Virus record (IMG/VR): IMGVR_UViG_2744054912_000003
Coordinates: 1-45,289 of that record
Direction: 5' to 3' (one strand)
Length of the DNA: 45,289 nt
Source: a virus
Taxonomy: Duplodnaviria > Heunggongvirae > Uroviricota > Caudoviricetes
Shown here: one piece after another, positions 3,737 through 41,596 of the stretch
Layout of the letters: each line of letters opens with the position of its first letter
Numbering within the stretch: the stretch's first letter is position 1
Program-made: the position numbers and the translations under genes
Notes under the pieces: generated by a model
Database searches by the model: none
Seen by the model: the letters and a program-made list of their open reading frames with translations, nothing else
What the model was told of the DNA's origin: nothing

Positions 3737-3789
3737 AGTTACGGCCTCGTAAGTTGATAAACAACCTGCGACCCGCTGCTAAACAGGTG

Positions 3790-3880
3790 GCAGGACGTGA
3801 CGGGGTTAGCAGACTGGCACTTACGAAACCAGCAGGCCGAAGCCTCCCCATCACGCCCCACCATAATTCGGGCGTAACGT
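3790..3880 (-). ncRNA. c4: c4-like antisense repressor RNA (approximate location)
   Basis: On the minus strand, UCUGCUAA and CGUAAGU (plus coordinates about 3802-3826) are complementary to UUAGCAG and ACUUACG located 40-80 nt further downstream, next to the icd ribosome-binding site. This is the two-site pairing expected for c4. Confidence 0.35.
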
Positions 3881-4048
3881 GGTTTACGGACACAAAAATA
3901 CCGCAATATCGGAAATCTGCGGTTGTCCGCGTAAGTATTCAGGCTGCTAAACCCGGTCGCAGAATTTGCTACGACGGCGAAACTATAAGCCTGAACGATT
4001 AAAAGGTCAATATGATGCAAAAAGATAGCATTCGCGACTTAAAAATAC

Positions 4049-13184: not shown

Positions 13185-14020
13185 TGCAGCGTTCCTGGTT
13201 TAATAACCGGCTTACATCAGCTAAGCAAAAGTCATTGCTCTATAAATCATTGGCTGATTTGGTTCAGTCAATGATGGATACCTTTGTTGACCCATGGTTG
13301 GAGCGAATTACCAACCGGAAGTCTATTTTTTCCATGAGCAAGGAGGATCTGGAGACCAGGACAAATGAACTTGGCCAGTTCTTTACTATCAGAACGTCGA
13401 ACTCATCTTCCGTTCCGATGTTGTTACAACAGCGTCTTGATGAGATTCACTTTAAGGGGACTGAACGCCCTATAAACCAGACAATTTACCGCGAATTTAA
13501 CGGTATTTCTGTTTTATGGGATCCGATATATGCACCGGTGGACCTTGAGCGTCATCCCTATGGCACGGTTCTAATACCAGAAAGCACACTGGAGACTACC
13601 GGCGGCACATTCGGCGAGATGTTTCTGACTTCCAGAGGGATGATCAGTATTCCCATAAACGACCTGGCCCGGACAATGGGGATTACTGGCACGATAGATC
13701 AGTCCGCAATTACAGAAGAAATTCTCAGAAAGTTTAATCAGTTCGTAAAGCCTCTACTGCCACTGCATATAGTGTTTGATGGGCTTACGCTCTATTTGTC
13801 GGTTGTTGTAAATGAACAGGCCGACATGATCACTTTGAACGAGATTTCTGATACCGAAAAAGCATTCTGCTGGTTTGAAACTTCGGATACAACTTCGCTT
13901 ACTGGAGTTACGTCGATTAGCGCCCCGATCACCGCAACGCCTGGTGGCACTATTGTGAAAGCGACACCTACGTTTGATCGCACACGCGCAGATGATTTGT
14001 TGCTGGATAGCGACGCCTGA
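13184..14020 (+). CDS. Baseplate/tail structural protein (position of P1 gene 16)
   Basis: About 278 aa, ATG overlapping the bplA-like stop. Confidence 0.5.
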   Translation: MQRSWFNNRLTSAKQKSLLYKSLADLVQSMMDTFVDPWLERITNRKSIFSMSKEDLETRTNELGQFFTIRTSNSSSVPMLLQQRLDEIHFKGTERPINQTIYREFNGISVLWDPIYAPVDLERHPYGTVLIPESTLETTGGTFGEMFLTSRGMISIPINDLARTMGITGTIDQSAITEEILRKFNQFVKPLLPLHIVFDGLTLYLSVVVNEQADMITLNEISDTEKAFCWFETSDTTSLTGVTSISAPITATPGGTIVKATPTFDRTRADDLLLDSDA

Positions 14021-14023
14021 CAA

Positions 14024-14048
14024 TCACCCCGTCCGCAGGGCGGGGTGA
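14024..14048 (+). terminator. GC-rich hairpin between structural genes (possible attenuator/terminator)
   Basis: TCACCCCG-loop-CGGGGTGA followed by a moderately T-rich tract. Confidence 0.35.
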
Positions 14049-14098
14049 CAAGTTACTTCTCTTACAATGAGGCTTCACAACATTGATTAGGGAAAATC

Positions 14099-14533
14099 AT
14101 GTCTGACGTCTCAACAAACCTCTATAAGAGTCAGTTGTTGGACTATTACTATCAGCGGCGCGCTGAATCGTCCATTAACAAAGGCTCTCGATTTTTAATC
14201 AGCAAGGCCGTTTTCGGTACCAGTTCACTGGTTACTAAGAAAGGAGATGGCACTTATGAGATTGGAGAACTGCCAAAGGCTTTCGATCTGGCAGAACTGA
14301 CCAGTCAATTTTGCACCATCAACCTCGTCCCAACCTACTCAGGCGGGATAATAACTGTCCGAATGGACCTTGATCAAAGCCAGTTGCAGGAAGGGAAAAA
14401 CTACCCATTCAACACTCTGGTTGTTCTGGATAACGAGAACAAGCCAATCGCCATTATTTGTGTCCAGGAAGACTCGCTGTATGTGGGCAAAACATATACC
14501 GCAGTTATGGCCATAAACACGACTACAGCATAA
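14099..14533 (+). CDS. Tail-fibre-associated structural protein (position of P1 gene R)
   Basis: 144-aa ORF immediately upstream of the tail fibre gene. Confidence 0.5.
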
Positions 14534-14544
14534 GGATATGCTTG

Positions 14545-17500
14545 ATGAATGACGTTACAGTTGTCACATCGGTTACTTACCCATCACCCGAGTCGTTGGC
14601 TCTGGTGGCTGATGTGCAATACCACGAACCATATCTGTCAGCCGCGCTAAACCGAAAATTCAGGGGGATTGTTGACCCGGGATTTTATGCCGGTTTCTTA
14701 CCTAAGCCTGGCGGTGGGATGAACCTGTTAATCACCTCAGTGGATGGTGATAAAACCGCAGGCGCGGCGTCGGTGGATATTGGTGAATTCTACCAGGTAA
14801 CTATTCAGCAACGTAAGGATATTTCTCTTGCACTTAGTGCAGGCAAGAAATATGCAATTGTGCTGAAGGGAAGATACCTCCTTGGAGAAGATACCTATCA
14901 GGTGAATACCGCGTCACATATTCATGCGGCTGAATTTGTTTCCAGAACCTATACCGATTCATATCAGTTAGGAGATGGGGAGCTGCTTGTTTGTACGGTG
15001 AATATCCCTGCTGGTGTATCTGCCATTACCCAGGAGATGATTGATACATCCAAGCGTATCAACCGCACGATCGGCATTGATATTTCAGACTCTGTAACCA
15101 GTACCAGAAGTGATGTTGCTGCGAGTTCGCTGGCAGTTAAAAAAGCCTACGATCTGGCTAAAAGCAAGTATACGGCGCAGGATGCAAGCACAACACAAAA
15201 GGGATTAGTTCAGCTCAGTAGCGCAACTAACAGCGACAGCGAAACAATGGCGGCTACCCCTAAAGCCGTTAAGTCTGTAAAAGAGCTGGCTGATACCAAA
15301 GCGCCAATAGAAAGCCCGAGTCTGACAGGAACGCCAACCGCGCCGACGGCAGCGCAAGGTACAAACAGCACGCAGATCGCAAATACAGCCTTTGTTAAGG
15401 CAGCTATAACGGCACTTATCAACGGTGCACCTGGCACACTGGATACGCTTAAAGAAATAGCTGCTGCGATCAATAACGACCCGAATTTCAGCACAACTAT
15501 CAACAATGCTCTGGCTCTTAAAGCTCCTTTAGCAAGTCCTGCATTAACGGGAATACCTACTGCGCCTACCGCTGCACAGGGTACGAATAACACGCAGATT
15601 GCTACGACCGCTTATGTAAGAGCTGCTATCTCTGCATTGGTCGGCTCATCACCTGAAGCTCTTGATACTCTGAATGAGCTTGCAGCAGCACTGGGCAATG
15701 ACCCGAACTTTGCGACAACAATGACAAATGCGCTGGCAGGCAAACAGCCTCTGGATGCAACTTTAACCGCGCTCGCTGCCCTTGCGACTGGTGCAAACAA
15801 ACTGCCTTATTTCACTGGTAAGGATACGGTAGCGCAGACTGATTTAACGTCAGTCGGTCGCGATATTCTGGCTAAAACAAGCACACTGGCCGTTATCCAA
15901 TACCTTGGTTTAAGAGAACTCGGTACCAGCGGTGAAAAGATCCCCCTGTTGAGCACGGCTAACACATGGAGTGCGCGCCAGACTTTCAACGGCGGGATCA
16001 CCGGGGCGCTGACAGGGAACGCCGACACCGCGACGAAATTGAAAACAGCACGCACGATTGGCGGTGTGGCATTTGATGGCTCGGCCAATATCAATCTTCC
16101 AGGTGTAAATACAACAGGTAACCAGAACACCACGGGGAATGCTGCTACCGCGACAAAACTTGCGACGGCAAGAAACATCAACGGTGTTAAGTTTGATGGC
16201 TCAGGCGATATCAACATTAATACATTGGTATCTCGTGGCCGAGTTACGGCGTTAAGCGGCTCTACTCAAGGCACTGCTGGCATTCAAATGTACGAGGCGT
16301 ACAACAATAGCTACCCGACCACGTATGGCAACGTATTGCACATGAAAGGTGCGAGTGCTGCTGGTGAGGGCGAGTTGCTTATTGGCTGGAGTGGTACGAG
16401 CGGTGCACATGCGCCAGTTTTCATTCGCTCCCGAAGAGATAACACAGATGCGGCATGGTCTGAGTGGGCACAGGTCTATACATCGAAAGACTCCATACCG
16501 GGCGTAAATACAACGGGCAACCAGAACACAACAGGAAATGCGGCGTCTGCCACGAAATTACAAACGGCAAGAACCATTGGTGGCGTTTCATTTAATGGTA
16601 CCGCAAACATCGACCTGCCAGGTGTGAATAAAACAGGTAATCAGAGCACTACTGGCAATGCTGCAACTGCAACAAAACTGCAAACAGCACGCACAATAGG
16701 CGGCGTATCATTCGATGGCTCCGCCAATATCAATCTGCCGGGTGTAAACATTGCTGGTAACCAGAACACAACCGGTAATGCAGCTACGGCTACCAAATTG
16801 CTAACAGCGCGTACCATTAATGGGGTTTCATTTGACGGTTCTGCGAATATTTCACTGTCACCAGCAAATATTGGTTGCCCGGCATCTCCTACTGGTTGGC
16901 TTGTAACAGGTGATAATGGAGCTTCAATAACAACAGAGCAATTAGTGACTCTGCTACGAGATAATGGTGCTTTTAATGCAAAGGCATGGATAGCGCGTTG
17001 TGCCTGGGCGTATGCAAATAGTGCATCCATACCAGACAGCGAAACAGGATGCGGCATTATTCCACTGGCTGGCGCAGTTATTGAGGTATTTAATAACGGC
17101 AGTAGCTCAAACAATTATACGATTCGTATAACAACGGCAACAACGACAGGTGTCTCTGGCGCACTCACTAATGCGGAGTTTGTCTATGTGTTTAACGGGA
17201 CGAGCTATTCACCAGGATGGCGCAGAGCGTATAACACTAAAAACAAGCCTACTGCGGCTGATGTCGGAGCTTTACCACTATCTGGAGGAGCGTTAACTGG
17301 CGGATTAACTGCTGCTGGCGAGATTATTTCCAAATCGGCGAATGGTCTGCGCATTGCCTACGGAAACTACGGATTCTTTATCCGAAACGATGGTTCAAAC
17401 ACATATTTCATGTTGACCGATTCGGGTAACAGCCTAGGAACCTATAATAGGTTAAGGCCGCTTATCATTAACAATGCCAATGGTGCTGTTACGATCGGTA

Positions 17501-18564
17501 ATGGACTCAATGTTACTGGCGGCATCAATGGTAGTTTGAACGGTAATGCTGCAACTGCTACAAAACTTCAGACTGCAAGAAAAATATCCGGTGTTCCATT
17601 TGATGGTTCTACTGATATCACTTTAACCGCCGCGCATGTGGCTGCTTTTGCCAGAAGGGCAACGGATACATATGCCGATGCGGATGGTGGCGTTCCCTGG
17701 AATGCCGAATCAGGCGCTTACAATGTCACCCGCTCTGGCGACAGCTATATTCTGGTTAACTTCTATACCGGAGTCGGAAGTTGCCGGACATTGCAGATGA
17801 AGGCGCATTACAGAAATGGTGGTCTGTTCTACCGTTCTTCAAGAGACGGTTATGGTTTTGAAGAAGACTGGGCAGAAGTTTATACCTCGAAAAATCTTCC
17901 ACCAGAAAGCTACCCAGTCGGCGCACCAATCCCGTGGCCATCAGATACCGTTCCGTCTGGTTATGCCCTGATGCAGGGGCAGACTTTTGACAAATCTGCT
18001 TACCCGAAACTTGCAGCCGCTTATCCGTCAGGCGTGATCCCTGATATGCGTGGCTGGACGATTAAGGGCAAACCTGCCAGTGGTCGTGCCGTATTGTCTC
18101 AGGAACAGGACGGCATTAAATCGCACACCCACAGCGCCAGCGCATCCAGTACGGATTTGGGGACGAAAACCACATCGTCGTTTGATTACGGTACTAAACC
18201 AACGAATAACACAGGTGCACATACCCACAATGTATCTGGTACTGCAAATAGTGCTGGCGCACATACTCATACCGTTCCATTAAGGAGACCAAACAGTGGA
18301 GGTATGAATTTCGACTGGCTTGATGGTTCATCAAGTGGCACGGTCGTGGGGAATGGAACAGTGCCTTCTTCTGGTGCACACACCCACTCAGTATCAGGCA
18401 CTGCTGCAAGTGCAGGGGCGCATGCACATACAGTTGGTATTGGCGCTCATACGCACTCTGTTGCGATTGGTTCACATGGACATACCATCACCGTTAATGC
18501 TGCTGGTAACGCGGAAAACACCGTTAAAAACATCGCATTTAATTATATTGTGAGGCTTGCATAA
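14545..18564 (+). CDS. Long tail fibre protein (start moved to the ATG at 14545 with AAGGA ribosome-binding site)
   Basis: 1339 aa; repeated ~39-aa modules GN(Q/A)[31 protein letters not shown]; C-terminal His-rich HxH array ([39 protein letters not shown]) typical of T4 gp37, Mu S and P1 S receptor-binding tips. Confidence 0.85.
16498..16854. repeat. Three tandem ~117-bp repeat units within the tail fibre gene (related copies at about 16009-16215 and 17527-17630)
   Basis: Seen directly in DNA and in the protein repeat PGVN-TGNQ-TTGNAA-ATKL-TARTI-GVSF-G-ANI-L. Confidence 0.85.
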
Positions 18565-19181
18565 TGGCATTCAGAATGAGTGAACAATCACGTACAGTAA
18601 AAATTTATAACCTGCTGGCCGGAACTAATGAGTTTATTGGTGAAGATGACGCATATATTCCACCTCATACAGGGCTGCCAGCTAATTCTACAGATATCGC
18701 CCCACCGGAAATTCCTACTGGCTTTGTGGCAGTTTTCAACAGTGAAAATGAATCGTGGAATATTGTTGAAGACCATCGTGGTAAAACGGTCTATGAGGTG
18801 GCATCGGGGGACGCGTTGTTTATTTCTGAACCCGGACCGCTACCAGAGAATGTCACCTGGTTGTCGCCAGCAGGGGAGTATCAGAAGTGGGACGGCGTAT
18901 CCTGGGTGAAGGATGAGGAAGCAGAAAAACTGTTTCGGATACGGGAAGCGGAAGAGAAAAAGGCAAGGTTGATCCAGGAGGCAACAGATAACATCGCAAT
19001 TCTGCAGGACGCAGTTAATCTTGAAATAGCAACAAACGAGGAAAATTCACAACTGGACTCCTGGAGAAAATACAGAGTATTAGTGAGTCGAATTGATACC
19101 AGTACAGCTCCGGATATCGTATGGCCAGAGCTGATGAATCAGGGTTATGTGCGGGAGGACGAGCAGATAACTTCAGACTGA
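18564..19181 (+). CDS. Tail fibre assembly protein (Tfa; P1 gene U position)
   Basis: ATG overlaps the tail fibre stop (TAATG); N-terminus [58 protein letters not shown] is the conserved Tfa N-domain seen in Mu, lambdoid and e14 phages. Confidence 0.85.
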
Positions 19182-19708
19182 AATTTAGTGATGAATGTTG
19201 AATCATCAGGAATATCATGCAATACCAATGCATGAGCACCTATTGTGACATTGTTTCCTATACGCACTTTGCCACCAAGAATGGTGGCATTACAACCAAT
19301 GGTCACATTATCTCCTATAACAATATCCATGTCATTAAATTCCCCGCGAAGTCCAATAGTTACTCCGGGCTTAATTGAACAATTTTCACCGATTGTGACT
19401 TTGTGAGCGATAACAACGCCATTGAGATAAGATATGTCAAACCCTTTCCCTATATTTACCGTTAAGGGAACGGTTACATTGTATTTGTCAAGAATGAAGC
19501 GTTCTATTTTCCCTGCAACCTTTCGCCTGTATCCGCCTTTATCAAAAAGATATTTTGATATGCGCCACCAAAATAAATAACGAACTCTTCTATGTTTTAT
19601 TGCGCGAACAATTGCTTTTCGCCAAGAGAAAGGACGCTCGCTACCAATTACTTCATAGTGAATACAGTCTTTAAGTTCATTAATAGTCATATTTTTATTG
19701 TTCAGCAT
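19145..19708 (-). CDS. Hexapeptide-repeat (left-handed beta-helix) acyl/acetyltransferase
   Basis: Repeated [LIV]-G-x-x-x-x hexads ([16 protein letters not shown]...[34 protein letters not shown]); low GC compared with flanking genes; 3' end overlaps the convergent tfa by 37 bp. Confidence 0.8.
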
Positions 19709-19769
19709 AATATAATAATGTGACCAATTATTATAATAACTTTAATGGATTATTTCTACTGATTATCCA

Positions 19770-20700
19770 GTGTGTCTGGCGGTTTTCGGTATTATCTGCC
19801 GGAACCATGCCTCATCCAGCGGGTATTTGCTGCCTGGGTTGTCCGGTTTTTCGGTCACTCCCTCAGGCCTCCGATTCTGGTCACGGCGGGTTTGTTATTT
19901 TCCAGTGCGTCGGATGACCACTGCCGCAACTTCTGCACCATTTTTTGGGAGCGGGATTTCACTCCTACGCAACCTGCGCTTTTTGTGCAGCCTGTTTTGC
20001 GTGCTATCCCGGATTTTTGAGTTTCATTCTGCCTCCATGATCCTATCAGGGACGACACCAATCCACTTAAGCACGATGCCAAGACCATCAAGGAGCTGCG
20101 TCAGAGGCCCAGCACAATGTTCTGCTTGATCGGCATAGGGGGGAGCACAAGGGCTGCGCCCCTGCCACACCACCCGGCATGCGGGTCCGTACCGGGCTTC
20201 CCCGGCTTCTGACGCAATGCCCTGTCAAGAGTCATATCTTCTGGCTTTCCTTCTCGTTCGGCCCTTCGTCGGAGTCCTGACTACTACGGCCTCTGCTGAC
20301 TTCTCGCTCCGTCTTACGACGTTGCCCTTTCAGGCATGAGGCGAGAACTCCCCAGGTAAGAACGCGATCCTTCCCCGCACAACCGTCGGATCTGCGCGAC
20401 TTCGACTTGACCACGAAAGCTTCGCAGTGATGTGCCTGCTCGCCTTGCTCCATCGCGCCTCATATCCGATTCTCGTTCATCGGCTCACGGGTTCATTCCG
20501 TGCTTCCTCCCCACGCCCGGTCGCCCTCACGCAGTTGCACTTCATTTCGCTCGCTGTGGTCAGCTCGCGGGAGGGCTTTCACCTCCAAGATCGCGCCCAT
20601 GCTGGGCGCACACATTCTCCACGCTCTAAAGGACGTGGAGGATGTCAAGCAACATGACCGGTTGAGAAGTTACTTTGCATACCATTACCTCCTGACAACG
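19770..20700. other. GC-rich (visibly well above flanking DNA) ~0.9 kb region with no convincing ORF
   Basis: Only short overlapping ORFs in all frames and both strands; several perfect hairpins (GCGCCCA-TGC-TGGGCGC, CTCCACG-N10-CGTGGAG). Confidence 0.5.
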
Positions 20701-20713
20701 TAGGAGGGAACTT

Positions 20714-21043
20714 GTGCTTGACACACAGGAATTAGCTCCAGTTGCTATTGCGCTCCTGCTTTCAGTAATTGGTGGGATAGGCACGTTCCTGATGGATGTC
20801 CGAGATGGTCGCCAGTCTGGCAATTTGTTGGGATTGGTTACGGAGATCTTTGTTGCAGTGACAGCTGGCGCGGTGGCGTACCTATTGGGGCAACACGAGG
20901 GCTGGGAGTTATCAATTACGTACTTAATGGTAACGATAGCCAGCAATAACGGTCATGAGGTGATTTCAGGGATGAAACGAGTGAATATCGATAGCATTCT
21001 GAATGTTCTTACAAGTTTGGTGAAAAAGGGAGGTGGGAAATGA
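20714..21043 (+). CDS. lydA: Holin-like membrane protein (LydA-like), GTG start with AGGAGG ribosome-binding site
   Basis: 109 aa with hydrophobic helices; first gene of the operon that contains darA. Confidence 0.55.
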   Translation: MLDTQELAPVAIALLLSVIGGIGTFLMDVRDGRQSGNLLGLVTEIFVAVTAGAVAYLLGQHEGWELSITYLMVTIASNNGHEVISGMKRVNIDSILNVLTSLVKKGGGK

Positions 21044-21483
21044 TTGGCTGGGGTGTATGCGTTCTTGCGTTAGCCTTAGCCGATCGCTATTTGCTAAAAC
21101 GCAAGGACATCACGCATTTAGAACTTGGTGATGTGGAAATTAAACAGGGCTTCATCCGGGTGCCGTTCAAATACCGGTCTAAATTCCCGTTTTTGCGCGG
21201 CGCAACGGTCAGATATTGGATCCGCGATGTTCAGAAGCCAACGACAGTGATTGAAGGCGAACAACGTTGTCTGACGTCGGCTGAACAGGGCGAAAACAGT
21301 GAATGGTTGTACATACCCACTGAATATATGGGTAAAGGAGAACGGCTGTGGCATTTCAACGTCATGGTTACGCATGGTGACTCGTTCATTAACCCGTTGT
21401 ATCGGATTTTCCCTGTTACTCAGCAAATCCGCAGAAGTTACGTAATAAATCTCGCACAGGATGTGTCAGATGACGAAAAATAA
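21040..21483 (+). CDS. lydB: LydB-like protein (antiholin position)
   Basis: 147 aa, start overlaps the lydA-like stop. Confidence 0.45.
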   Translation: MIGWGVCVLALALADRYLLKRKDITHLELGDVEIKQGFIRVPFKYRSKFPFLRGATVRYWIRDVQKPTTVIEGEQRCLTSAEQGENSEWLYIPTEYMGKGERLWHFNVMVTHGDSFINPLYRIFPVTQQIRRSYVINLAQDVSDDEK

Positions 21484-22072
21484 GTATGCAACGGTCGATT
21501 TTGACCAGGTTAATGAAAAGGGGCTGAAATCCCTTATCGCGGCGATCAATAAAACCGGGGTTACGGTAATTGAGGTTGACTCCAGCAACCGCGCAACAAC
21601 GAAAGATGGCGTTAAAGTTAAAACCGCAAAGCTGGTTCTTAACGACGGACAAATTCTTGCCATACAGGTAAACGATACTGGCGATATATCGTCTGTGAAA
21701 CTGAATGGAAAAGCTATTCCTAACGCTCAGTCGCCGGATATCAAGACGCTTGGTACCGTCATGGGACAGGCGGCCCGCAAAAACTCCGCAAAATTCCAGA
21801 AATCACTGACCGCCAAAGCGAAGCGTGTTGCCAATCCGGTAGACAAGAAACCGGCAGTTAAATCCAACTTTCAGCGCCTGCAAGAAGCAAAACAGCGGAA
21901 TGCTCAGGTGGTTGCCGCTTATAAATCAGCGCAGAACTCGGTGTCTTTCACTCAACAGCAGATCACTGATTTGCGGGCGAAGCTGGATAAGGAGACAGGC
22001 CGACTCAATAACGAAAAGGCACGGAATGGCGAACTCAAACGCCGTCTTAAGCAACTGAAAGCAGGAAATTAA
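21470..22072 (+). CDS. hdf: Hdf-like protein of the darA operon (start chosen at the ATG with AGGA ribosome-binding site)
   Basis: About 200 aa, basic Lys-rich; order and size match the P1 hdf-darA-ddrA-ddrB operon as I recall it. Confidence 0.45.
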   Translation: MTKNKYATVDFDQVNEKGLKSLIAAINKTGVTVIEVDSSNRATTKDGVKVKTAKLVLNDGQILAIQVNDTGDISSVKLNGKAIPNAQSPDIKTLGTVMGQAARKNSAKFQKSLTAKAKRVANPVDKKPAVKSNFQRLQEAKQRNAQVVAAYKSAQNSVSFTQQQITDLRAKLDKETGRLNNEKARNGELKRRLKQLKAGN

Positions 22073-22073
22073 C

Positions 22074-23981
22074 ATGGAACAGTTCAATATCAATAAAGGG
22101 GTGACGATCAAACCTGGGCTTGACGTGCTTCCCCCGCCAGTGACTGATGATGAATATCGCGCATTAATGGCCGGTGAGGACCGCTATCTGATGACGGAAT
22201 CCAACACCCTGGAGGAAATCGAGGCTACGTTCTTCTATGACACGCCGATCCACTGGTGTGCTACGGATTTACTGGAGGCGATTAGTTCTACTCGTTTGCA
22301 GTTACACCGGACCATGCAGGCATTTGTCCGGGCATTGAACCAGAAGCTGAATGGTACCGGAATCTCTGCGGGGAGTGATAAAACGGGGGATGTGGCCCAG
22401 AGCGGCGCGCGCGCGATCGGCGGCGCTGAAATTGGCCGGGCACGTAACGTTAACGGGCTGCCAGTCCTGCCAGCCATTATTCCGCTCAGTGATGGTCAGA
22501 CTATCAGCATTCTGTTTCATAGCCCGACAGCGGAAAACCGGATCACCAATAGCGATACGCTGGTTGCTTTCCAGTTCTTACTGAATAAAAAAGACGTTAC
22601 TCACACCGTTGCTCCGATGAGTGGACGTGATATGACGCTGGCGCAGGTCACCATGAAACTTGCCAACCTTGCAGAGAAAAACTCGGCAAAATTCCAGCGT
22701 GCGCAGAAGAAGAAAAAAGCCCTTGTTGATGAAATAACCCAACTACAGGCTGACAGTGACCAGAAAGAGGATGCCATGAGCGACCTCGCGGATCAGGTGG
22801 CAGCGGTAGAAGGGCAGAAGGCAGATCTGGAGCAGAAAATTAACGCTGTTGCATCGGAAGCGGATTCTCTTTATGAAGAGAATGAGCGTTTGCAGACGGA
22901 GATTGATCAGCTCAATCGAACAGGTGGGCGCGATACCATTGCTCCAGTGACAATAACTGGTGGGCACTCACGCGCGTTGACGGATCGCCAAAATCGCATG
23001 CATATGGACGGTGAAGCGACGCTCAGTAATGGTGCATCAATGAAGCAATTCATTGGGGATGGCGAAGGGTATATCCAGTTAACCGATCCGGATGGCAGCG
23101 TATATATGATCAAGGCTAAATCCATACAGGGTGTGGACATGGCAGATGCAATCGGCAAGCTGTTTAAAGCCTATAAAGCGGGTAATGTATCGGAATATCT
23201 GGTCCAACCAGAAGAACATAAACCGGAAAACGTCGAACCTGAACCAGCGGAGGATACCGGTAGCTCTTCGCCTGAACCAGAAGTCTCTGTAGGTGCATAT
23301 CGATATGCTCTGCAAATGCGTCCGGCGGCCCCTGGCGCAATACCTGAAGGTAACAAAGCAATTCTGCCGCGCCCTGATGAAGGTGATCCGTATTATGAAT
23401 ATGCACGCTACGGCATTGCTACTTATGATACCCCGCTTTCTGATCAGCAAATGAGTGAGTACGACCTGAAGTTATTGCCTCGCGAGGATTCTTTCGACTT
23501 CCTGGCGAAGACACTTACTAATGGTCCGTTTGGCAAATATGCACAAAAAGCTCTGGAGCTGGCCACCAGCTCACCAGACGAGTTCCGCGTAATGCTGAAA
23601 ACTCAGTTTCAAAAAACTTTCCCCAATATTGCGTTTCCGGGTGGCGCTGGCACCGAGAAAATGTTGCAGAGCATGATCAATGCATTGCAGGCCGAAGTCG
23701 GTGAGATTACTCAGCCAGAACCGGCCCCGGCACAGCCTGATGAAACGGTTAGCGAAGCAGATGCAGAGGCTAATAAAGCCATTGAATATCTCAATAACGT
23801 GATGGATATGCAAAGCACTGACATGGCGGAGATCCGTAACGCCCGGGGCAATGTCCGGGAAGCGATTGCATCCCTTCAGGCTGCCGAACGTTTTGAGGAA
23901 AACGAAGAGCTGGTTAACGGCGCAGCTCGCCACCTGGCTGATCTGTTGGTAGCAATCCAGAAAGCGGGGGTAGCGGCATGA
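22074..23981 (+). CDS. darA: DarA-like virion antirestriction protein
   Basis: 635 aa (about 70 kDa) in the expected position; internal coiled-coil segment. Confidence 0.55.
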   Translation: MEQFNINKGVTIKPGLDVLPPPVTDDEYRALMAGEDRYLMTESNTLEEIEATFFYDTPIHWCATDLLEAISSTRLQLHRTMQAFVRALNQKLNGTGISAGSDKTGDVAQSGARAIGGAEIGRARNVNGLPVLPAIIPLSDGQTISILFHSPTAENRITNSDTLVAFQFLLNKKDVTHTVAPMSGRDMTLAQVTMKLANLAEKNSAKFQRAQKKKKALVDEITQLQADSDQKEDAMSDLADQVAAVEGQKADLEQKINAVASEADSLYEENERLQTEIDQLNRTGGRDTIAPVTITGGHSRALTDRQNRMHMDGEATLSNGASMKQFIGDGEGYIQLTDPDGSVYMIKAKSIQGVDMADAIGKLFKAYKAGNVSEYLVQPEEHKPENVEPEPAEDTGSSSPEPEVSVGAYRYALQMRPAAPGAIPEGNKAILPRPDEGDPYYEYARYGIATYDTPLSDQQMSEYDLKLLPREDSFDFLAKTLTNGPFGKYAQKALELATSSPDEFRVMLKTQFQKTFPNIAFPGGAGTEKMLQSMINALQAEVGEITQPEPAPAQPDETVSEADAEANKAIEYLNNVMDMQSTDMAEIRNARGNVREAIASLQAAERFEENEELVNGAARHLADLLVAIQKAGVAA

Positions 23982-24343
23982 CACTATCAGCTATTGAGTT
24001 AATGGATCTCAGCGATAAGTTGGATGCTCTAATGTCCAAAGCGGCGACCGCGAGTGGCATGGAGTTGCTGGATATCAGCGATGAAATTGACCAGATCATG
24101 CAACAGATGGGGTACGGCGCGTCCGGCAGCGGTAGTGGCGAGGAAAAACAACCTTCGGTACATGATGGTGTGCCAAAACTGGTTGCTGATTTCCTGGCTG
24201 ATAAATTCGTCGATCAGAGCACTGATGCATTTATCGGTACGTTACAGGACTTGAGTCAATATGTTGGCACATACATCGACCTGGACCAGGTTAAACAGCA
24301 CACGGCGGCATGGATAGCCGCCAACATTAAAGAGGCAGAATAA
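23978..24343 (+). CDS. ddrA: DdrA-like protein
   Basis: 121 aa, start overlaps the darA stop. Confidence 0.45.
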   Translation: MTLSAIELMDLSDKLDALMSKAATASGMELLDISDEIDQIMQQMGYGASGSGSGEEKQPSVHDGVPKLVADFLADKFVDQSTDAFIGTLQDLSQYVGTYIDLDQVKQHTAAWIAANIKEAE

Positions 24344-24355
24344 GGCGTAACAGGG

Positions 24356-27343
24356 ATGAGCTTAAGCGATCAGGTGGTAATGGCCACCAGCATAGAAACG
24401 CTGATCGAGCTGCTAAAAAACCTGCCCAATTACGGGCGGGTTTCGTATGTGGTGACAGCGAAGGGAGACGAGGTAAAAACAGCGTTTGATATCGTCGATG
24501 CCTCAGCTCTTTTGGTATCCAATACTCTGGACGGGAAAATTAACCCTGACTATCCCCAGGAACTTCAGCCGCGCGACCGGACCCGCGCATCCAGTCTTCT
24601 TCAGGTCAACCAGATATCCAAGGATTTGCGTCCTGCCCAGCTTACCGATTCCGGTTTATCCAGCCATGGCGCGCCGATAATTGGTGAGGACAATGCCGTT
24701 GAGTCAGGTAATGGACGGACCATGGGGATCATCAAAGCCTATCAGGACGGCAATGCGGATCGGTATCGTGAGTACCTGATTGATCATGCGACCGAATTCG
24801 GCATACGACCTGAAAAGGTTGAATCAATGGCGGCTCCGGTACTGGTGCGCCGCCGGTTAACTAAGGTTGACCGCGTTCAGTTTGCCAAGGACTCAAATAT
24901 TTCTGATCTTCAGGAAATGGCAGCCAGTGAAAAGGCTTTTGTTGATGCTGACAGCATAACTCCGGCGATGATGGCGCTGTTTAACCCATCAGAAAGCGGA
25001 GATCTGCTTAGCCGCAGTAATGACGCGTTTATTCGCGGATTCATGACGCAAGTTGGTGCCACACAGGCTGCTGGCCTTGTAACGGAAGATGGGCGACCAA
25101 CACGGCAACTTGTAGACCGTATACAAAACGCGATCTTTGCCAAGGCATATAAGGATGCGCGCCTGGTAAGGATGGTTGCAGAAGAAGCTGATCCGGATAT
25201 GCGTAATGTTCTGACGGCGCTTAATGCGGCAGCCAATGATTTTGTCCAGATGCAGGCTTTATCAGGAGAAGCGCACAAGCAGGCTGTGACAACTATTGTT
25301 GATGGCATTGAGACAGCGGATAGCCTCGATAAAAAGGCGCTGGCGGCATTGAAAGATGCGGTAGACCTGGTAAGGCAATCGAAGGAGTCAGGCCAACATA
25401 TTACCGATGTTATTGCTCAGGGGGATATGTTCAGCGAAACAGCCCCGGAAGTGAAAGCTCTCGCGTTGTTCATCGTCGCGAATAACCGTAGCGCGAAGCG
25501 TATGGCCACCGCTTTTAAATTGATGGCTCAACGTATCAATGATGAGTTACAGCACCAGGGCCAGGCGCTGGGGGATATGTTTGGCGGTGGTGATGTGTCG
25601 TTACAGGATATCCTTCGCCAGGTGTCTCAGGAACTGGAAAACGAAGGCATGCAAGGGATATCCGGCGGTCTTTTCGAGTCCGTTTCCGGCGGTAGTTACA
25701 ACGGTGTTGCTCCATATACCAGTTTGCTATTACATCGGGCATCCGGCATCAAAGACATTATTCATCTGATCAGGCTGCTTTCCCGTACAGATCCCCAGGA
25801 TGAACAGCTTGTACAAGTGCTTGCGCATTTTGTTCGAATGCCTGTTGCCGACGTGAAAAAATGGTGCCGATTATTCGGTATCAGCAATTCGTTACTTCGC
25901 GGCTTCTTAAATCACGCATCCTCCCTTGGGCGCGATGGCTTTGACGAGATAGCGCAGGCGATAAAAAACGGAGATATGCCACCAGCTATTGACTGGTTTT
26001 CCATTCGCCCAACCAGGGTGAAAGCATTCCTTAGCGCGGCGCATTCGGCATCACCATTGGCAGAAATGGTTCAGAGGTTGTCGCTCATATTCACAGACCA
26101 TACTGCGTTGGGTGATCTGACTCTGGACGAGATGAAAGAAGCCTCCATTCAGTGGGCCGATCAACAAAATGAGGTTAACTCAGACTTCTTGCCAGCATTC
26201 AGGAAGGCCGTTAGTAAAGCGGATGATGCCCGTGGAATTCTGAAGGCATTTAAGGCATTGCAAAGTCGGGTTAATAAACATGTCGGTGATATCGATGGGG
26301 TAACGGCGGAAGGCAGGGATATCCTTAAAGAGCACGGCATAACGCCAGAGTTTATTGATGAGATCAGGACGGATATGCAGCGTGAGGTCGTATCGTCCCT
26401 GCAAATTGTAGCCAGAGCGTTGGCGGATGCTAATCCGAAGAGTGCGGCCATTGTTAACCGGGTTATTGGTGATATTGAAGCATCGGAGGGCATGGGGGCG
26501 CTGAAACTCTTCCTTTCGCGAGCGTTTAATCCTAACGGCAATATTCTCCCTGGCATTATTGGTGAGGCTAAAAGGTATGTCAGTGAAGAAGAACTTGAGC
26601 AGCTTGACCAACTACTTAAGCGATTCTCATATAACCCGCAGACACGCTGGCAAATGAATCAGCGAAGTATGGGTTCGGTCCACGAGAAAGTGTTATCTGC
26701 CATGAACAGTGCGATCGCAAACTCATCCGTATCTGAAGAAAAAGCTCTTGAGTGGGCCGACTCTTTTATCACGGAAGAAGTGGAAGAAGCCCGCGCTGGA
26801 CAGAATGGTGGGATAGACCTGCGCAAGGAACTTGCTGATATTTATCGCCTGACCGGCGGTAAAATTTCGACCTTATCAAAGGTGGTTCACCACCAGGGAA
26901 GGGCATATGCAAATCTTAATGGTGTTGTTGCTGTCAATTTGAACGATGAAAATGCAAGTGCACTGTGGCACGAGCTGGGTCATCATCTTGAGTACAGTAA
27001 CCCTGGTTTGTTAGAGAAAGCCCGGTCATTCCTGAAGGCCAATGTTGAAGGGGATAAGCCATCTTTCGTTAATATCGGTGGGCGTGGCAAGCCTGAATGG
27101 TGCTTCAGATCTCGATTGAGTAATATTTATATGGCGAAGGTATACCCGCCAGCCTCAGTGAGTAACTCCGGGAAAATTCGGCAGAAAGCACCGACTATTT
27201 CAAAAACATCAGCAACGGAAGTATTCTCTATGGCTCTTCAGTTGTATCATGACAAAGAGGCCGCTGCCGCATCACTGATGAATGGTGACGGATTGCTGGA
27301 ACTGTTATTAGGTGTGGCAAAGGAGCTAAATAATGCAGATTAA
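24356..27343 (+). CDS. ddrB: DdrB-like large virion protein
   Basis: 995 aa (about 109 kDa) following ddrA. Confidence 0.5.
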   Translation: MSLSDQVVMATSIETLIELLKNLPNYGRVSYVVTAKGDEVKTAFDIVDASALLVSNTLDGKINPDYPQELQPRDRTRASSLLQVNQISKDLRPAQLTDSGLSSHGAPIIGEDNAVESGNGRTMGIIKAYQDGNADRYREYLIDHATEFGIRPEKVESMAAPVLVRRRLTKVDRVQFAKDSNISDLQEMAASEKAFVDADSITPAMMALFNPSESGDLLSRSNDAFIRGFMTQVGATQAAGLVTEDGRPTRQLVDRIQNAIFAKAYKDARLVRMVAEEADPDMRNVLTALNAAANDFVQMQALSGEAHKQAVTTIVDGIETADSLDKKALAALKDAVDLVRQSKESGQHITDVIAQGDMFSETAPEVKALALFIVANNRSAKRMATAFKLMAQRINDELQHQGQALGDMFGGGDVSLQDILRQVSQELENEGMQGISGGLFESVSGGSYNGVAPYTSLLLHRASGIKDIIHLIRLLSRTDPQDEQLVQVLAHFVRMPVADVKKWCRLFGISNSLLRGFLNHASSLGRDGFDEIAQAIKNGDMPPAIDWFSIRPTRVKAFLSAAHSASPLAEMVQRLSLIFTDHTALGDLTLDEMKEASIQWADQQNEVNSDFLPAFRKAVSKADDARGILKAFKALQSRVNKHVGDIDGVTAEGRDILKEHGITPEFIDEIRTDMQREVVSSLQIVARALADANPKSAAIVNRVIGDIEASEGMGALKLFLSRAFNPNGNILPGIIGEAKRYVSEEELEQLDQLLKRFSYNPQTRWQMNQRSMGSVHEKVLSAMNSAIANSSVSEEKALEWADSFITEEVEEARAGQNGGIDLRKELADIYRLTGGKISTLSKVVHHQGRAYANLNGVVAVNLNDENASALWHELGHHLEYSNPGLLEKARSFLKANVEGDKPSFVNIGGRGKPEWCFRSRLSNIYMAKVYPPASVSNSGKIRQKAPTISKTSATEVFSMALQLYHDKEAAAASLMNGDGLLELLLGVAKELNNAD

Positions 27344-28377: not shown

Positions 28378-29490
28378 ATGAAAAAAATCACAGTGGCACT
28401 TTCTGCGGTTGCAGCATCAGTCCTGATGGCAATGTCTGCACAAGCGGCAGAAATCTATAACAAAGACGGTAACAAACTGGATCTGTACGGCAAAGTTAAT
28501 GCAGAGCATTACTTCTCTTCTTCAGCTAGTGATGACGGGGATAAAACTTATGCTCGTATGGGTTTCAAAGGTGAAACTCAGATTAATGACCAGTTAACCG
28601 GTTTTGGTCAGTGGGAGTACGAATTTAAAGGTAACCGTACTGAAACTGAAGGTTCTGATAAAGACAAAACTCGTCTTGCGTTTGCAGGGCTTCGCTTTGG
28701 CGATTATGGTTCGCTCGACTATGGTCGCAACTACGGTGTAGCGTATGATGTTGGCGCTTGGACTGACGTGCTGCCGGAGTTTGGTGGAGATACCTGGACT
28801 CAGACTGATGTATTTATGACCCAGCGTGCTACTGGCGTCGCGACCTATCGTAACAATGATTTCTTCGGCTTGGTTGATGGTCTGAACTTTGCTTTGCAGT
28901 ATCAGGGTAAAAATGATAGTGCTGCAAAAGTGAACAACTGGAAAGGCCGCGACGTAGTTGAATCTAATGGTGATGGCTTCGGTCTGTCAGCTACTTATGA
29001 TTATGAAGGATTTGGCATTGGCGCAACTTATGCAAAATCTGACCGTACTGATGGACAGGTATCCTATGCTAATGCAAGCTCTCTGAATGCTTCTGGTAAA
29101 ACAGCTGAAGTATGGGCTACTGGTCTGAAATATGACGCAAACAACATTTACCTGGCTGCAACTTATTCTGAAACTCAGAATATGACAGTCTTCGGTGATG
29201 ACTTTATCGCAAACAAAGCGAAAAACTTTGAAGCTGTTGCTCAATACCAGTTTGATTTCGGCCTGCGTCCGTCCATCGCTTACCTGCACTCTCGCGGTGA
29301 AAATATTGGTGCGTTCGGTAACCAGGATCTAGTTGAATACATCGACGTAGGCGCGACTTATTACTTCAACAAAAATATGTCCGCTTTCGTTGACTACAAG
29401 ATCAACCTGATTGATGAAAGTGAATTTACCAAAGCATCTGAGGTTGCAACCGACAACATCGTTGCTGTTGGTATGACCTACCAATTCTAA
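28378..29490 (+). CDS. OmpC/NmpC(OmpD)-family general porin
   Basis: 370 aa; signal peptide ending [19 protein letters not shown]; C-terminal ...VAVGMTYQF with terminal Phe; closely resembles E. coli NmpC as remembered. Confidence 0.9.
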
Positions 29491-40000: not shown

Positions 40001-40795
40001 AAAGCCGAGATCAAGCAGGCAATGGACGCAGCAAGCGCGCGCATCGCAGCAGAACGGGAAGCCAATCTGAATCATGCAGTCGCCGCACTGACTCAATCGT
40101 GGGTAACAGCAATCAGGGAGGCCGCCACCACAGGGAAAATCACACCTGCAATTGCGGATGTCGTAAACGACGGCTCTAAATTTATGGATGCCTATCAAAT
40201 GGATGCGGTGCAGTTGCCATCAGCCTATGGCCAACTCAGCTATCGCATGACCTACAACCTGGTATCAATGTTTTCCGACCTTGCCATCCTTGGGCTGGTG
40301 GATCTTAACGAGGTTACGCCGGAATTGCTCAGCATGCGCAAGAATCATGTGGAGATATTGCAGAGAATTAACACGGTTCTTGCCGGGCGCACCGATGAAG
40401 AGAAACAGGCCGACGCTGATCGGATAAACCTGGCCCTTGGCAACATCACGGAGGAAGAAATTGCCGCCAGAAACGAGAAACAAGAAGAGTTATCATCAAT
40501 ACAGGGTGATGCCACCAGCATAGTTCAGTCTCTTGGTCTGAATTATCGCGTATCCACCGCCGACCTGAAGATGATGTACGCACCAAAATTCGCCGCTGGC
40601 GAGGTATTTGGGCTTCAGGAAGCCTCAGGCATGAAAGGCGTTCTTTTCCGTGCGAAAGACGCAATCAAGGCGAAATTCGGCGCTCGCTGGCTGCCAGCGA
40701 AGGCGAAGAACAGCGATTTCCCGGGTAACTGGTGGATTATCGAGACAAAACACAACGTGGCGGACGTTCTGGCCGTCATCCAACAATACGCATAA
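34028..40795 (+). CDS. darB: DarB-like giant virion antirestriction protein: N6-adenine methyltransferase fused to SF2 helicase
   Basis: 2255 aa; methyltransferase motif VGNVPFGG; helicase Walker A GFGTGLGKTTTA, motif II DEGHNYRN, motif VI QRNGRGARVG; the length matches P1 DarB as I recall it. Confidence 0.85.
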   Translation: MNKLSMGVFRCSSVSEILKYIRAITSHRAPIKYGVEKVEGKSYDRLRREANQKAIDLLNSLVDGATLTDEQRQILAGYTGEGGIGGSVSEYYTPKPIAEGVWEIMKLYGADVGNTLEPSAGTGVFNETKPVGTVMTATEISSVSGRINQLLHPEDSVQISPFEQLAINTPNDSFDHVVGNVPFGGRDNTRNIDKPYAEETDMGSYFMLRMLDKIKPGGFMCVIVPPSIVSGSNMKRLRLRLSRKAEFLGAHRLPTGTFDANGTSTVVDVVLMRKHPAEMAEKIPLVDESTLESANVLWPTFISGKWFEKDGRRFVHGTQEKGFQGRIEVRADGQIDNQALKAKLIHRFESRIDWSLLDMAEPSPTADVVGEGEMRLINGVWQKYAGGRWIEADAGKELKIDAASYGADSWEALQRNLTTTEGRLGMTFTQMANVRDKYTTSISDDMVQLVDWINSQPEKYRERLYRGAMIGRMLIEYQDMKAAGHSAEQIEQQRLSLVSRLQAEIDRFGNPGRGPIAKLSGSGARAWFAFRGAIKLDGTISDELTGKLVTHDSSASYDSTSYQDTLRYLYSDLTRDPIQLDDFRFAFTGELPASDEELLNLLASTPGIAVSPYGGIVPFARATSGDINEIVAPKQEFLATLPDGPVKNNVLNQLAAIEEKRIKTSAENIRFKLNSRWFDRSVILEFLQENGYPDLRYVQSVQLEGDEMVSDTYHGGDGLFVGHRYGVVQRKDKETGEIRYEWDRKSGENATGFPAQLEKYLNGARIGGKDSATANGYREQMALLEDQFNKWIKTHDRYDELVAKYNDVFNSNIPYEHSGDPLGLKGLSGKRQPFDYQNSEVRRLSEDGRGILGFGTGLGKTTTALALEAFNYENGRSTRTAYVVPKSVLENWYYEAKEFLSEEAFSNYLFVGLDVLMDGDQIRQVPVLNENGKPVLGTDGTPVMRDALKLADEATITARMNAIPHSNYRAVVFTKEQYARIPLRDDTVDEHAQDMLYDFVAAGRVASAMDSDSHRKEAARRRVLSEYSDTGTEKAEKYPYFEDMGFDSVIADEGHNYRNSYKNGREASQLAYLPTSAVAQSARDMAIKNAYLMKKNGGRGPVLLTATPVVNTPIDAYNMLSHVLPKEYWQKMGIYGPDDFVKFFGKTRLETVQKISGEVEEKMALVGFENLDALRGIFHRWTTLKTAEDVKDTVEIPELDEHQQDAPLTEEQLAAYEELRQQAEAAAKANNGVTTSVNEDGVIEHEKARPIFSIIRDMDRVCTDMDLYYRRITYRFLPEYADAVQQLADSLPKQATSEDDDSDDSITQQSQYSLIDKGEFIQLQVPEAFEQEVNKRLARFGIDEQTVTHPVTPKYAKLIATLKEFFPEGKQIIFTDEKTQHQKLKRIICNALNLEPSKVGILNAQTVAEAGKTGKKLKAVKPPKELPDEPTDAQIAKYNEQMALYDAYIAQQNEMSLGGLEKIAADFQEGRTPIIICNKKAEVGINLHRGTTDIHHLTLPWTPASIAQRNGRGARVGSNRASVRVHYYCGKGSFDEYRLKTLKRKAGWISDILRSDKSEMENADANDMIEMQMYTAKDDGERLAMMQVQMDKAKAAQRARQKEQATIDLQNYIKAQHAAGEDVEVLTAELERSKAELEKTTAEVAKFKQAVMAKAADNADWKARWGSVHHTDRMLLAQYRASLKSAIQRKANITQAISRYEKLLNRTQKAATDIKRLRPLVEDAINKGILDVDPDLVNHASEFLVIGDRSWRVGQYYDCAGDIVRIKSLDFDSQRADVEIIFTFKGTKSGNWDVKTLDKQVDVTPDEDAVMQKISGGVSIAGINDIISCDDFYRFQQRGMIKITDSYGVQTTESGYSIDFVGTYTDPLKHAVYPDRRDGALKSSIAKWVLGMMSEGNNRQIRSAETFLVELFGSNYGDVIASYGDTLSPEAIQEKIADAIAKMPEKTSQGATRNGDSELEVTNAIFGTHEFRASDYEITTAQFGTIGIYSNKAEIKQAMDAASARIAAEREANLNHAVAALTQSWVTAIREAATTGKITPAIADVVNDGSKFMDAYQMDAVQLPSAYGQLSYRMTYNLVSMFSDLAILGLVDLNEVTPELLSMRKNHVEILQRINTVLAGRTDEEKQADADRINLALGNITEEEIAARNEKQEELSSIQGDATSIVQSLGLNYRVSTADLKMMYAPKFAAGEVFGLQEASGMKGVLFRAKDAIKAKFGARWLPAKAKNSDFPGNWWIIETKHNVADVLAVIQQYA

Positions 40796-40828
40796 CAGGA
40801 GCGCCCGGTTCGCCGGGCGTCGCATAAT

Positions 40829-41269
40829 ATGGCCACACTATCTGATACAATAAAACCGAATAAAACATATCTTGAGGCGGTACTCCGTACAGCGTTGTTA
40901 GGAAAGACAGAAGACGAATACGTTGATTTCTTCCTGTCAGGGCTACGCGGGCGATTACTGAAAAATCCCCGCCTGTACCGCAGCTATGGGCCATACTGGC
41001 CGGAAATTAAAAAATTATTACTGGAGCGCGGTTATGGTAATTTCGGTCGTCTCGTTGATCGTGACGTTCGCAAAATTTACCGTTATGACCGCCCGGCGCT
41101 AACACTCATAGCCGCGACGCTCTACAGCCAGGAGCGTTTTGATAATGGCCAGATATACTCAGCCTGGCATTTACTGCCAGTGCCTGAAGAGGTTGACGAC
41201 CAGGACTATGAGTTTGAGTCTTACGATTTGGAAGTTGAAGCCTTGGCACAGGCTGGAGAGAAAACTTGA
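40829..41269 (+). CDS. ulx: Ulx-like small protein downstream of darB
   Basis: 146 aa; position and size. Confidence 0.45.
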   Translation: MATLSDTIKPNKTYLEAVLRTALLGKTEDEYVDFFLSGLRGRLLKNPRLYRSYGPYWPEIKKLLLERGYGNFGRLVDRDVRKIYRYDRPALTLIAATLYSQERFDNGQIYSAWHLLPVPEEVDDQDYEFESYDLEVEALAQAGEKT

Positions 41270-41514
41270 AGAAGCGATACTACACAGTAAAGCATGGGAC
41301 GCTACGAGCATTGCAAGAGTTTGCTGATAAGCATAACGTTGAGGTGCGCAGGGAAGGGGGAAGTAAAGCTCTGCGCATGTACCGTCCTGACGGAAAATGG
41401 CGGACGGTCGTCGATTTCAAAACTAACAGTGTTCCCCAGGGCGTCCGCGACCGGGCATTCGAAGAATGGGAGCAGATCATCATAGATAACGCATTGCTTC
41501 TGAACGCTGATTAA
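41266..41514 (+). CDS. Small protein in the lxc position (82 aa)
   Basis: Start overlaps the ulx-like stop; position only. Confidence 0.4.
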   Translation: MKKRYYTVKHGTLRALQEFADKHNVEVRREGGSKALRMYRPDGKWRTVVDFKTNSVPQGVRDRAFEEWEQIIIDNALLLNAD

Positions 41515-41596
41515 TAATCATTTAAAGCCCATATGATATGGGCTTAAACAACAGGATCGATATACAGTGTTAGTTAAATATATAGGCGAGAGTTAT

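Follow-up and report, generated by a model that had tools for sequence, protein, structure and literature searches.

We report an analysis of a tail-fibre locus on a stretch of viral DNA of 45,289 nucleotides (positions 1 to 45,289 of IMG/VR virus record IMGVR_UViG_2744054912_000003; 'the window' is the whole of this stretch), in which gene R, a long tail-fibre gene S and a tail-fibre assembly gene tfa lie in one late operon that follows phage P1 in its proximal half and departs from it in its distal half. An earlier description of the same DNA, made from the sequence alone and referred to below as the original prediction, had seen here a fixed fibre with modular repeats and a histidine-rich tip. 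That observation is partly confirmed and both interpretations placed on it, a fixed fibre and a route to length variation, are supported; it had overlooked an intact cixR crossover site inside S (15893-15918), the relationship of the histidine array to T4 gp37 and the commonness of switch loss.

Positions 14000-21000 (7 kb) are 100% identical to the Escherichia coli plasmid pZ1323CEC0016-2, and 24 plasmid records contain at least 80% of this interval; the top partial matches among phage records are Punavirus P1, P7, RCS47, SJ46, JL22, phi456 and vB_EcoM-Ro157c2YLVW (below, Ro157c2YLVW). The order of the genes is also that of P1 (sit, pmgA, bplA, 16, R, S, then lydA, lydB, hdf, darA). These P1-like plasmid and phage matches, together with the shared gene order, identify the window at sequence level as part of a P1-family (Punavirus) phage-plasmid of E. 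coli. DNA identity to P1 is 96.9% up to 16049 and 98.3% from 20647 onward, and it is the interval between these two points that concerns us here. The features of the locus are as follows.

14050-14068 (+): LPs, late promoter ahead of R, S and tfa, located by transfer from the P1 annotation (L003 8050-8068, offset 6000); -22 box AAGTTACTT at 14050-14058, -10 box TACAAT at 14063-14068
14099-14533 (+): gene R, 144 amino acids, P1 tail-fibre structure or assembly protein; an open reading frame in the block 96.9% identical to P1, with PF26881 on its homologue
14545 (ATG)-18564 (stop) (+): tail-fibre gene S, 1339 amino acids, a fixed mosaic by reading frame and homology
14545-15905 (+): Sc, the constant N-terminal part of S common with P1 (96.9% nucleotide identity; P1 Sc annotation)
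15893-15918 (+): orphan crossover site cixR, TTATCCAATACCTTGGTTTAAGAGAA, 26 bp identical to P1 cixR, encoding part of ...VIQYLGLRE...
15979-16218 (+): modules A1 (15979-16098) and A2 (16099-16218), two units of 120 nucleotides
16498-16857 (+): modules B1 (16498-16617), B2 (16618-16737) and B3 (16738-16857), three tandem units of 120 nucleotides
17506-17625 (+): module C1
17905-18561 (+): T4 gp37-type collar and needle domain, residues 1121-1339 (PDB 2XGF; Collar, PF07484)
18124-18483 (+): seven HxH motifs that line up with those of gp37; putative iron-binding sites in the stem of the needle
18274-18378 (+): hypervariable, putatively receptor-contacting tip, residues 1244-1278, equivalent to T4 gp37 933-965, from segment identities
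18564-19181 (+): tfa, tail-fibre assembly chaperone, 205 amino acids (PF02413 Caudo_TAP; phrog_105)
19145-19708 (-): left-handed beta-helix (hexapeptide) acetyltransferase, convergent with tfa, the two genes sharing 37 nucleotides; third gene of what looks like a cassette
20261-20611 (-), possibly to about 20119: 5' fragment of a group II intron with its GTGCG 5' end at 20611 (Rfam RF02001, 96.9 bits; RF01998, 46.8 bits)
20667-20685 (+): late promoter LPdar (AAGTTACTT ... TACCAT), from the P1 annotation and as a repeat

The exact S protein is present on 284 public contigs. Its Sc part holds the P1-annotated repeats a0/a1/b1/b2 (about 15133-15744) and two Phage_fiber_2 stretches (PF03406), and the protein upstream of the tip also matches S/S' of phage Mu (8JU3, 5YVQ) and the trimerisation domain of T4 gp34 (PF21446; 4UXE, 5NXF). 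That a tfa gene directly follows the fibre gene, as originally described, is borne out: the S stop and the tfa start overlap by one base (TAATG), the product matches Caudo_TAP with E=2.8e-39 (134.7 bits against a cut-off of 22.1), and the two genes are probably translationally coupled. Likeness of this Tfa to P1 U is confined to the C-terminal 63 amino acids (46%).

The Lpa-dependent late promoters LPs and LPdar flank the rearranged segment, and the only long-range direct repeat of the region (14036-14068 and 20653-20685) consists of these two promoters with their common -22 box. In the plasmid AP027478.1, otherwise 99.9-100% identical, S is annotated as two overlapping coding sequences (90016-94036; 40016-44036 in our extract L009); over the 7 kb this record has one base more than the window (7002 against 7001), by frameshift or sequencing error. 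Elsewhere in the window, Rfam models match a sok antitoxin RNA (296-470, 114 bits), a C4 antisense RNA (3783-3868, 70.8 bits) and a C4 a1/b1 target (3936-3988, 55.3 bits), all on the (-) strand; C4 RNA and its a1/b1 target are elements of the ImmI immunity region of P1 and are consistent with the assignment to that family.

The P1 inversion switch and its remnant

Homology to P1 passes through cixR and about 140 bp into the terminal repeat of the former invertible segment, where it ends at 16049; it resumes at 20647, just upstream of LPdar and ahead of lydA, which starts at 20714. Missing between these points, relative to P1, are the remainder of Sv, the genes U, U' and Sv', the site cixL, cin along with the enhancer that it contains, and lydC. 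Within the window we found no second cix-like site (allowing up to 3 and up to 6 mismatches), no Cin homologue (tblastn with P1 Cin, E<=1e-2), no DNA homology to the cin/enhancer region of P1 (P1 14166-14726), and no second S or U/tfa copy, alternative Sv'/U' or long inverted repeat of the fibre genes. The original prediction that neither a recombinase nor an inverted alternative copy of the fibre or tfa gene is present therefore stands for the window, by tblastn and repeat search alike, and its view that host range is fixed rather than switchable is supported by the single cix site and by the absence of cin, enhancer and Sv'/U'. Set beside the switches of the Cin/Gin/Pin/Min type, the locus retains a constant Sc ending at a crossover site; the second, inverted site, the invertase with its enhancer and the alternative genes on the opposite strand are all absent. 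Lacking an invertase and left with a single cix site, the locus would be unable to switch its fibre, giving one specificity per virion.

The best public matches of the window are split between AP027478.1 (1-21000) and NZ_AP045803.1 (21000-45289) and the full 45 kb occurs in no single record, so that the absence of a switch from the replicon as a whole rests on close relatives. A recombinase or alternative cassette elsewhere on the replicon, a possibility raised in the original prediction, was looked for on two complete sibling plasmids, pZ1323CEC0016-2 (101 kb, S 100% identical) and pHYEC7-mcr1 (97.6 kb, S 99.9% identical), and neither was found: the two plasmids have no Cin homologue (tblastn, E<=1e-2), no second copy of S or U and no second cix-like site at up to 6 mismatches, and each has one cix site and one S/tfa pair.

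These results bear directly on the proposal that the fibre is still switchable, an invertase working in trans on cixR (Pin of e14, Gin or Cin of a co-resident prophage, or an enzyme encoded on the half of the replicon that the window does not cover) and on a partner site that would lie, with its cassette, beyond the window. The proposal can draw on a cixR that is 100% intact, on a window that covers 45 kb of a replicon of some 95-100 kb, and on the serine recombinases found on related multidrug-resistance derivatives. We nevertheless consider it highly improbable: both siblings have a single cix-like site and no Cin homologue, second S or U, the recombinational enhancer, which in P1 lies inside cin, is absent here, and the serine recombinases of AP027478.1 are only 36% identical to Cin and lie in a resistance region beside an integron integrase gene. 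Invertases of the Hin/Gin/Cin family, moreover, need two inverted sites and an enhancer on one molecule, which counts against switching in trans. The conservation of cixR was also considered as a sign of function in its own right and was rejected, since the site lies in coding sequence and is uninformative in this respect.

Loss of the switch is a known and common state of P1-like plasmids. We surveyed 14 IMG/VR loci with a P1-type Sc and at least 8 kb of sequence downstream; cixR is present in all 14, cin with two inverted cix sites in 5, a stump of cin in 2 and no cin in the remaining 7, so that the fixed state is common. Venturini et al. 2019 (PMC6906374) likewise describe P1-like plasmids with an altered cin and an incomplete C segment, in which loss of the switch is presumed. 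Among viral contigs with a P1-type Sc, 9 of 25 end 17-820 nucleotides downstream of cixR (L055, L057, L058, L060, L061, L063, L064, L070 and L073, all from IMG/VR). Assembly seems to have broken off there at the invertible segment or the repeated modules, and contig ends near cixR could be read as an indirect sign that inversion states are mixed.

Shaft modules and the length of the fibre

Beyond Sc the shaft is built around a repeated module. Where several copies of a module of about 39 amino acids had been described, the repetition itself is upheld, with six copies in S whose GNAxxAxKL cores begin at residues 491, 531, 664, 704, 744 and 1000, and the period is corrected to 120 nucleotides (40 amino acids). 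Similarly, the three tandem units reported as near-identical, 117 bp long and at 16498-16854 do lie head to tail and do start at exactly 16498; they are 120 nucleotides long, end at 16857, and share only 69-72.5% of their DNA sequence in pairwise comparison (80-85% at protein level), the longest exact run common to any two units being 14 nucleotides. Tandem Repeats Finder, applied to 14000-20000, accordingly reports no array of 117 or 120 nucleotides, and the array was detected at protein level and by gapless seed extension. Of the 40 codons in a B unit, 17-25 differ between units by synonymous changes only and 6-8 by changes of residue. As to a solved fold for the 40-residue module, the only match, a weak one (E=0.085), was with phage L Dec (6E3C), in its C-terminal part, and no fold is assigned.

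The modules coincide with the seams of the gene. The breakpoint of P1 homology at 16049 falls inside A1, P1 having a single module where the window has A1 and A2, and the left boundary of the cassette held in common with lambdoid side tail fibres and with Ro157c2YLVW lies inside C1 (about 17533-17557), so that both mosaic breakpoints of S are within modules. Comparison of S with its homologues was made on the best 120 protein clusters, of which 80 have 1339 amino acids and six modules, the module count over all 120 ranging from 3 to 9. One cluster, P0091, is S with one substitution and an exact deletion of 80 amino acids; in its DNA (L007; GCA_050484165.1, JBKEXN010000043.1) B1 is joined to B3 within a 14-nucleotide microhomology, AACCAGAACACAAC. 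P0090 is one module (40 amino acids) shorter than S, P0101 is 213 amino acids shorter through an A1/B2 joint (L008), single-module differences of 40 amino acids separate P0003 from P0085 and P0115 from P0116, and in P0092, P0102 and P0115 other domains follow a module. The L007 element also lacks the equivalent of window positions 20663-24651 (lydA, lydB, hdf, darA) and is probably lysis-defective.

How readily such changes arise is a separate question. If the tandem modules formed a contingency locus, frequent replication slippage would alter their number within a single phage stock and produce rapid variation in fibre length, and the head-to-tail, in-frame units of 120 nucleotides and the in-frame copy-number variants seen in nature are what would suggest it. 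The units, though, are too divergent to resemble such a locus, in which near-identical copies would be expected, Tandem Repeats Finder is negative, and length is constant in two-thirds of the clusters. The heavy synonymous divergence speaks for old, stable copies. Plasmid matches at 99% identity or more comprise 25 records, and among the matches listed 5 of 5 keep the query's span of 901 bases, which argues against frequent slippage. We regard a contingency locus as scarcely credible. A change in module number is supported instead, from sequence comparison, as a rare event of evolutionary recombination, and of the original suggestion that the repeats offer a route to length variation, the part that holds is the existence of natural variants of -40, -80, -213 and +40 amino acids arising by recombination, the part that does not being frequent slippage. 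The modules would then serve as in-frame joints at which shaft segments can be added, deleted or swapped, variation coming only on an evolutionary scale, by rare recombination at short homologies. The variants at module junctions also mark where these fibres tolerate in-frame deletion, insertion and exchange of domains, which is useful for the engineering of P1-based delivery particles.

The needle tip and its cassette

The C-terminal HxH array noted in the original prediction is real and belongs to a known fold, that of T4 gp37, as judged from a sequence match to 2XGF that we deem unambiguous. The C-terminal 219 amino acids of S align end to end with the crystal structure of the gp37 needle (PDB 2XGF, E=1.2e-85), and a Collar domain (PF07484, 46 bits against a cut-off of 24) precedes the array. 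The seven motifs begin at residues 1194, 1226, 1240, 1279, 1293, 1302 and 1311 (the array spans 1194-1313), and all seven are aligned with those of gp37; the remaining 1190 or so residues of S contain one HxH only, and seven such motifs were obtained in none of 20000 shuffles of the C-terminal 159 amino acids (mean 1.1). In the gp37 needle, seven iron atoms are bound by histidines of three chains, and tip residues 933-953 bind lipopolysaccharide and OmpC (PMC6957217).

Identity to gp37 is 77-78% in the two segments of the stem and 11% in the 35-residue tip. From a conserved stem and a divergent tip it follows that the fold and the metal sites of the needle are likely to be conserved, and that the receptor specificity probably differs from that of T4. 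In two natural variants, P0087 and P0089, every difference from S lies within residues 1200-1283, from which we infer that the tip is exchanged between conserved segments of the stem. The window also encodes a full-length porin of the OmpC/NmpC type (28378-29490 (+), PF00267, E=2e-148), annotated as ompC or PhoE in sibling plasmids; its presence on a phage-plasmid is worthy of remark, the fibre tip belonging to the gp37 family, whose T4 member binds OmpC.

The tip appears to have arrived in company. From C1 to within tfa (17558-18962) the DNA is about 91% identical to lambdoid stf-tfa genes (Turner, mEp332), and the stretch continuing through the acetyltransferase is 93.8% identical to vB_EcoM-613R2. 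The acetyltransferase reaches none of the curated equivalog cut-offs; it matches EpsC, CysE and WcaB best. A scan of IMG/VR with this protein returned 43 loci (L012-L054) with homologues of at least 84% identity; in 42 of these a tfa homologue is convergent with it and overlaps it (by about 31-37 nucleotides), and in 41 a gp37-type tip lies upstream. P1 Sc occurs in only 6 of the 43, most of the loci being on fibres other than those of P1. Because the tip, tfa and acetyltransferase remain linked across phage types, the trio would move as one unit and looks like a three-gene mobile host-range cassette, although all 43 loci are close relatives and the linkage may reflect recent common descent. 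It is rather unlikely that the acetyltransferase O-acetylates the surface polysaccharide recognised by the tip, making the trio a single host-range module; were this so, a lysogen would resist adsorption by phages that share its tip, and debris of lysogens would not trap the virions released.

Downstream of the cassette lies the intron fragment, which matches models of domains I to IV only. No domain V was detected at E<=1 and no reverse-transcriptase reading frame was found among translations of the region; it is for want of both that we regard the fragment as a relic, and an intron that is complete, or complete but lacking a reading frame, was rejected on the same grounds. The fragment sits exactly where P1 has cin and lydC. 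Similar fragments (82-96% identity) occur on other plasmids of E. coli, Vibrio and Pseudomonas, and a piece of 70 nucleotides matches Sinorhizobium replicons.

With relics such as the dead intron fragment and the orphan cixR at the operon, the whole locus might be the decaying remnant of a defective plasmid-prophage, its fibre unused and its fixed host range and length variation without biological meaning. Some relatives have indeed lost lydA-darA (L007) or have S split by a frameshift (AP027478.1), and P1-like plasmids with damaged morphogenesis modules are on record in the study already cited (PMC6906374). Against this, the window keeps S, tfa and R undamaged, along with the neighbouring genes for baseplate and lysis, both late promoters are conserved, 80 near-identical clusters keep the full reading frame of S, differences between modules are mostly synonymous, and Ro157c2YLVW, which has a fixed fibre of the same type, was deposited as a complete phage genome. 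Decay therefore seems to us improbable, and a fibre in use the better account.

A probable fixed mosaic fibre among known systems

Taken together, the results favour the interpretation that this is the late R-S-tfa operon of a P1-family phage-plasmid in which other DNA has taken the place of the distal half of the P1 locus, leaving one unswitchable fibre; we put its probability at about 0.85. Proximally, R, Sc, cixR and some 140 bp of what was once the invertible segment are P1 sequence. Gone are the remaining C segment (Sv, U, U', Sv'), cixL, lydC and cin together with the enhancer. In their place the locus has a longer shaft, in which modules of 40 amino acids alternate with knob domains, followed by a collar-needle tip of the T4 gp37 or lambda Stf type, its Tfa, the convergent acetyltransferase and then the dead intron fragment. 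Transcription of the operon would start from the Lpa-dependent promoter LPs and trimerisation of S would be assisted by Tfa. Each of the seven HxH motifs, contributed by three chains, would bind one metal ion as in gp37 and so stiffen the needle, while the 35-residue tip, unrelated to that of T4 and swappable between flanking stretches of conserved, HxH-bearing stem, would contact the receptor, probably the lipopolysaccharide core and/or a porin.

Several points weigh against this account. About half of the replicon lies outside the window, and a chromosomal invertase acting in trans is possible; at 96.9% identity a run of 26 nucleotides without mismatch is expected about 44% of the time, so that the intactness of cixR is no proof of function. 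At the right end of the window lies a fragment of a Tn3-family DDE transposase (43740-45209 (-), a reading frame of 489 amino acids, PF01526), in a region that matches more than 5000 plasmid records, including those of Klebsiella and Salmonella. The source replicon thus probably carries a transposon or resistance insertion, and a Tn3-family transposon may bring a resolvase with it, as in AP027478.1, where identity to Cin is 36%. Metal binding, dependence on Tfa and the receptor, finally, are all assigned by homology.

The interest of a fixed fibre in this family lies in its carriers. P1-like phage-plasmids spread resistance genes, pHYEC7-mcr1 combining mcr-1 with this very fibre, and it is on the tail fibre that the range of hosts within their reach depends. 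For the present lineage, host range would be set by a single tip of the T4/lambda type and not by the textbook Cin switch, which suggests that receptor tests (porins, lipopolysaccharide core) together with the tip sequence may predict hosts better than the biology of P1 S and S', of which S binds the outer-core sugars of lipopolysaccharide and S' the O-antigen (PMC13172314).

The architecture is already known from JL22, pHYEC7-mcr1 and Ro157c2YLVW, and our account gives a known pattern in more detail, leaving current understanding unchanged. In Wang et al. 2022 (PMC9603915), lydC-cin-Sv'-U'-U-S is listed as a hypervariable region, and JL22, a phage-plasmid from an E. coli strain of a duck farm, is described as having U and part of S replaced by tfa and a serine acetyltransferase, the same replacement as here; JL22 is 97.3% identical to the window over the part they have in common. 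What is added is the orphan cixR, the linkage of the cassette, the microhomology junctions and the tip-only variants; in the portions of the published accounts of cin-less P1-like elements consulted, neither the orphan cixR nor the module-junction variants were met.

Compared with the Cin/C-segment locus of P1, the window shows 96.9-100% identity in R, Sc and cixR and retains some 140 bp of the segment's terminal repeat; LPs, LPdar and the flanking genes 16, lydA, lydB, hdf and darA are alike, whereas cixL, cin, the enhancer, Sv'/U' and lydC are wanting, and the fibre has 1339 amino acids against 987, six modules against two and a gp37-type tip in place of the P1/Mu Sv. T4 gp37 shares the collar, all seven HxH motifs, the 219-residue alignment and an identical C-terminus; the window differs in its tip, in having a lambda-type Tfa (Caudo_TAP) rather than gp38, and in mounting the domain on a P1 fibre. 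The lambdoid stf-tfa genes (Turner, mEp332, coliphage prophages) resemble the cassette from C1 to within tfa, yet here it is fused in frame to P1 Sc and the shaft and would be expressed from a P1 late promoter. Ro157c2YLVW shares the gp37-type tip, tfa and acetyltransferase but has a fibre of 949 amino acids with two modules and six HxH motifs, and a stump of U' instead of the intron fragment; its deletion is a different one, the whole 0.6-kb Sv terminal repeat being kept and the U' stump abutting lydA, so that the region must have undergone more than one rearrangement. A parallel for the tip itself is offered by the adhesins of the T-even phages, in which Tetart et al. 1996 and 1998 reportedly found that conserved His-box motifs recombine with one another and that duplications in gp37 alter host range. 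There, as in S and its tip-only variants, a conserved HxH-bearing stem flanks a hypervariable tip, although the lineage described here is that of a temperate, P1-like plasmid.

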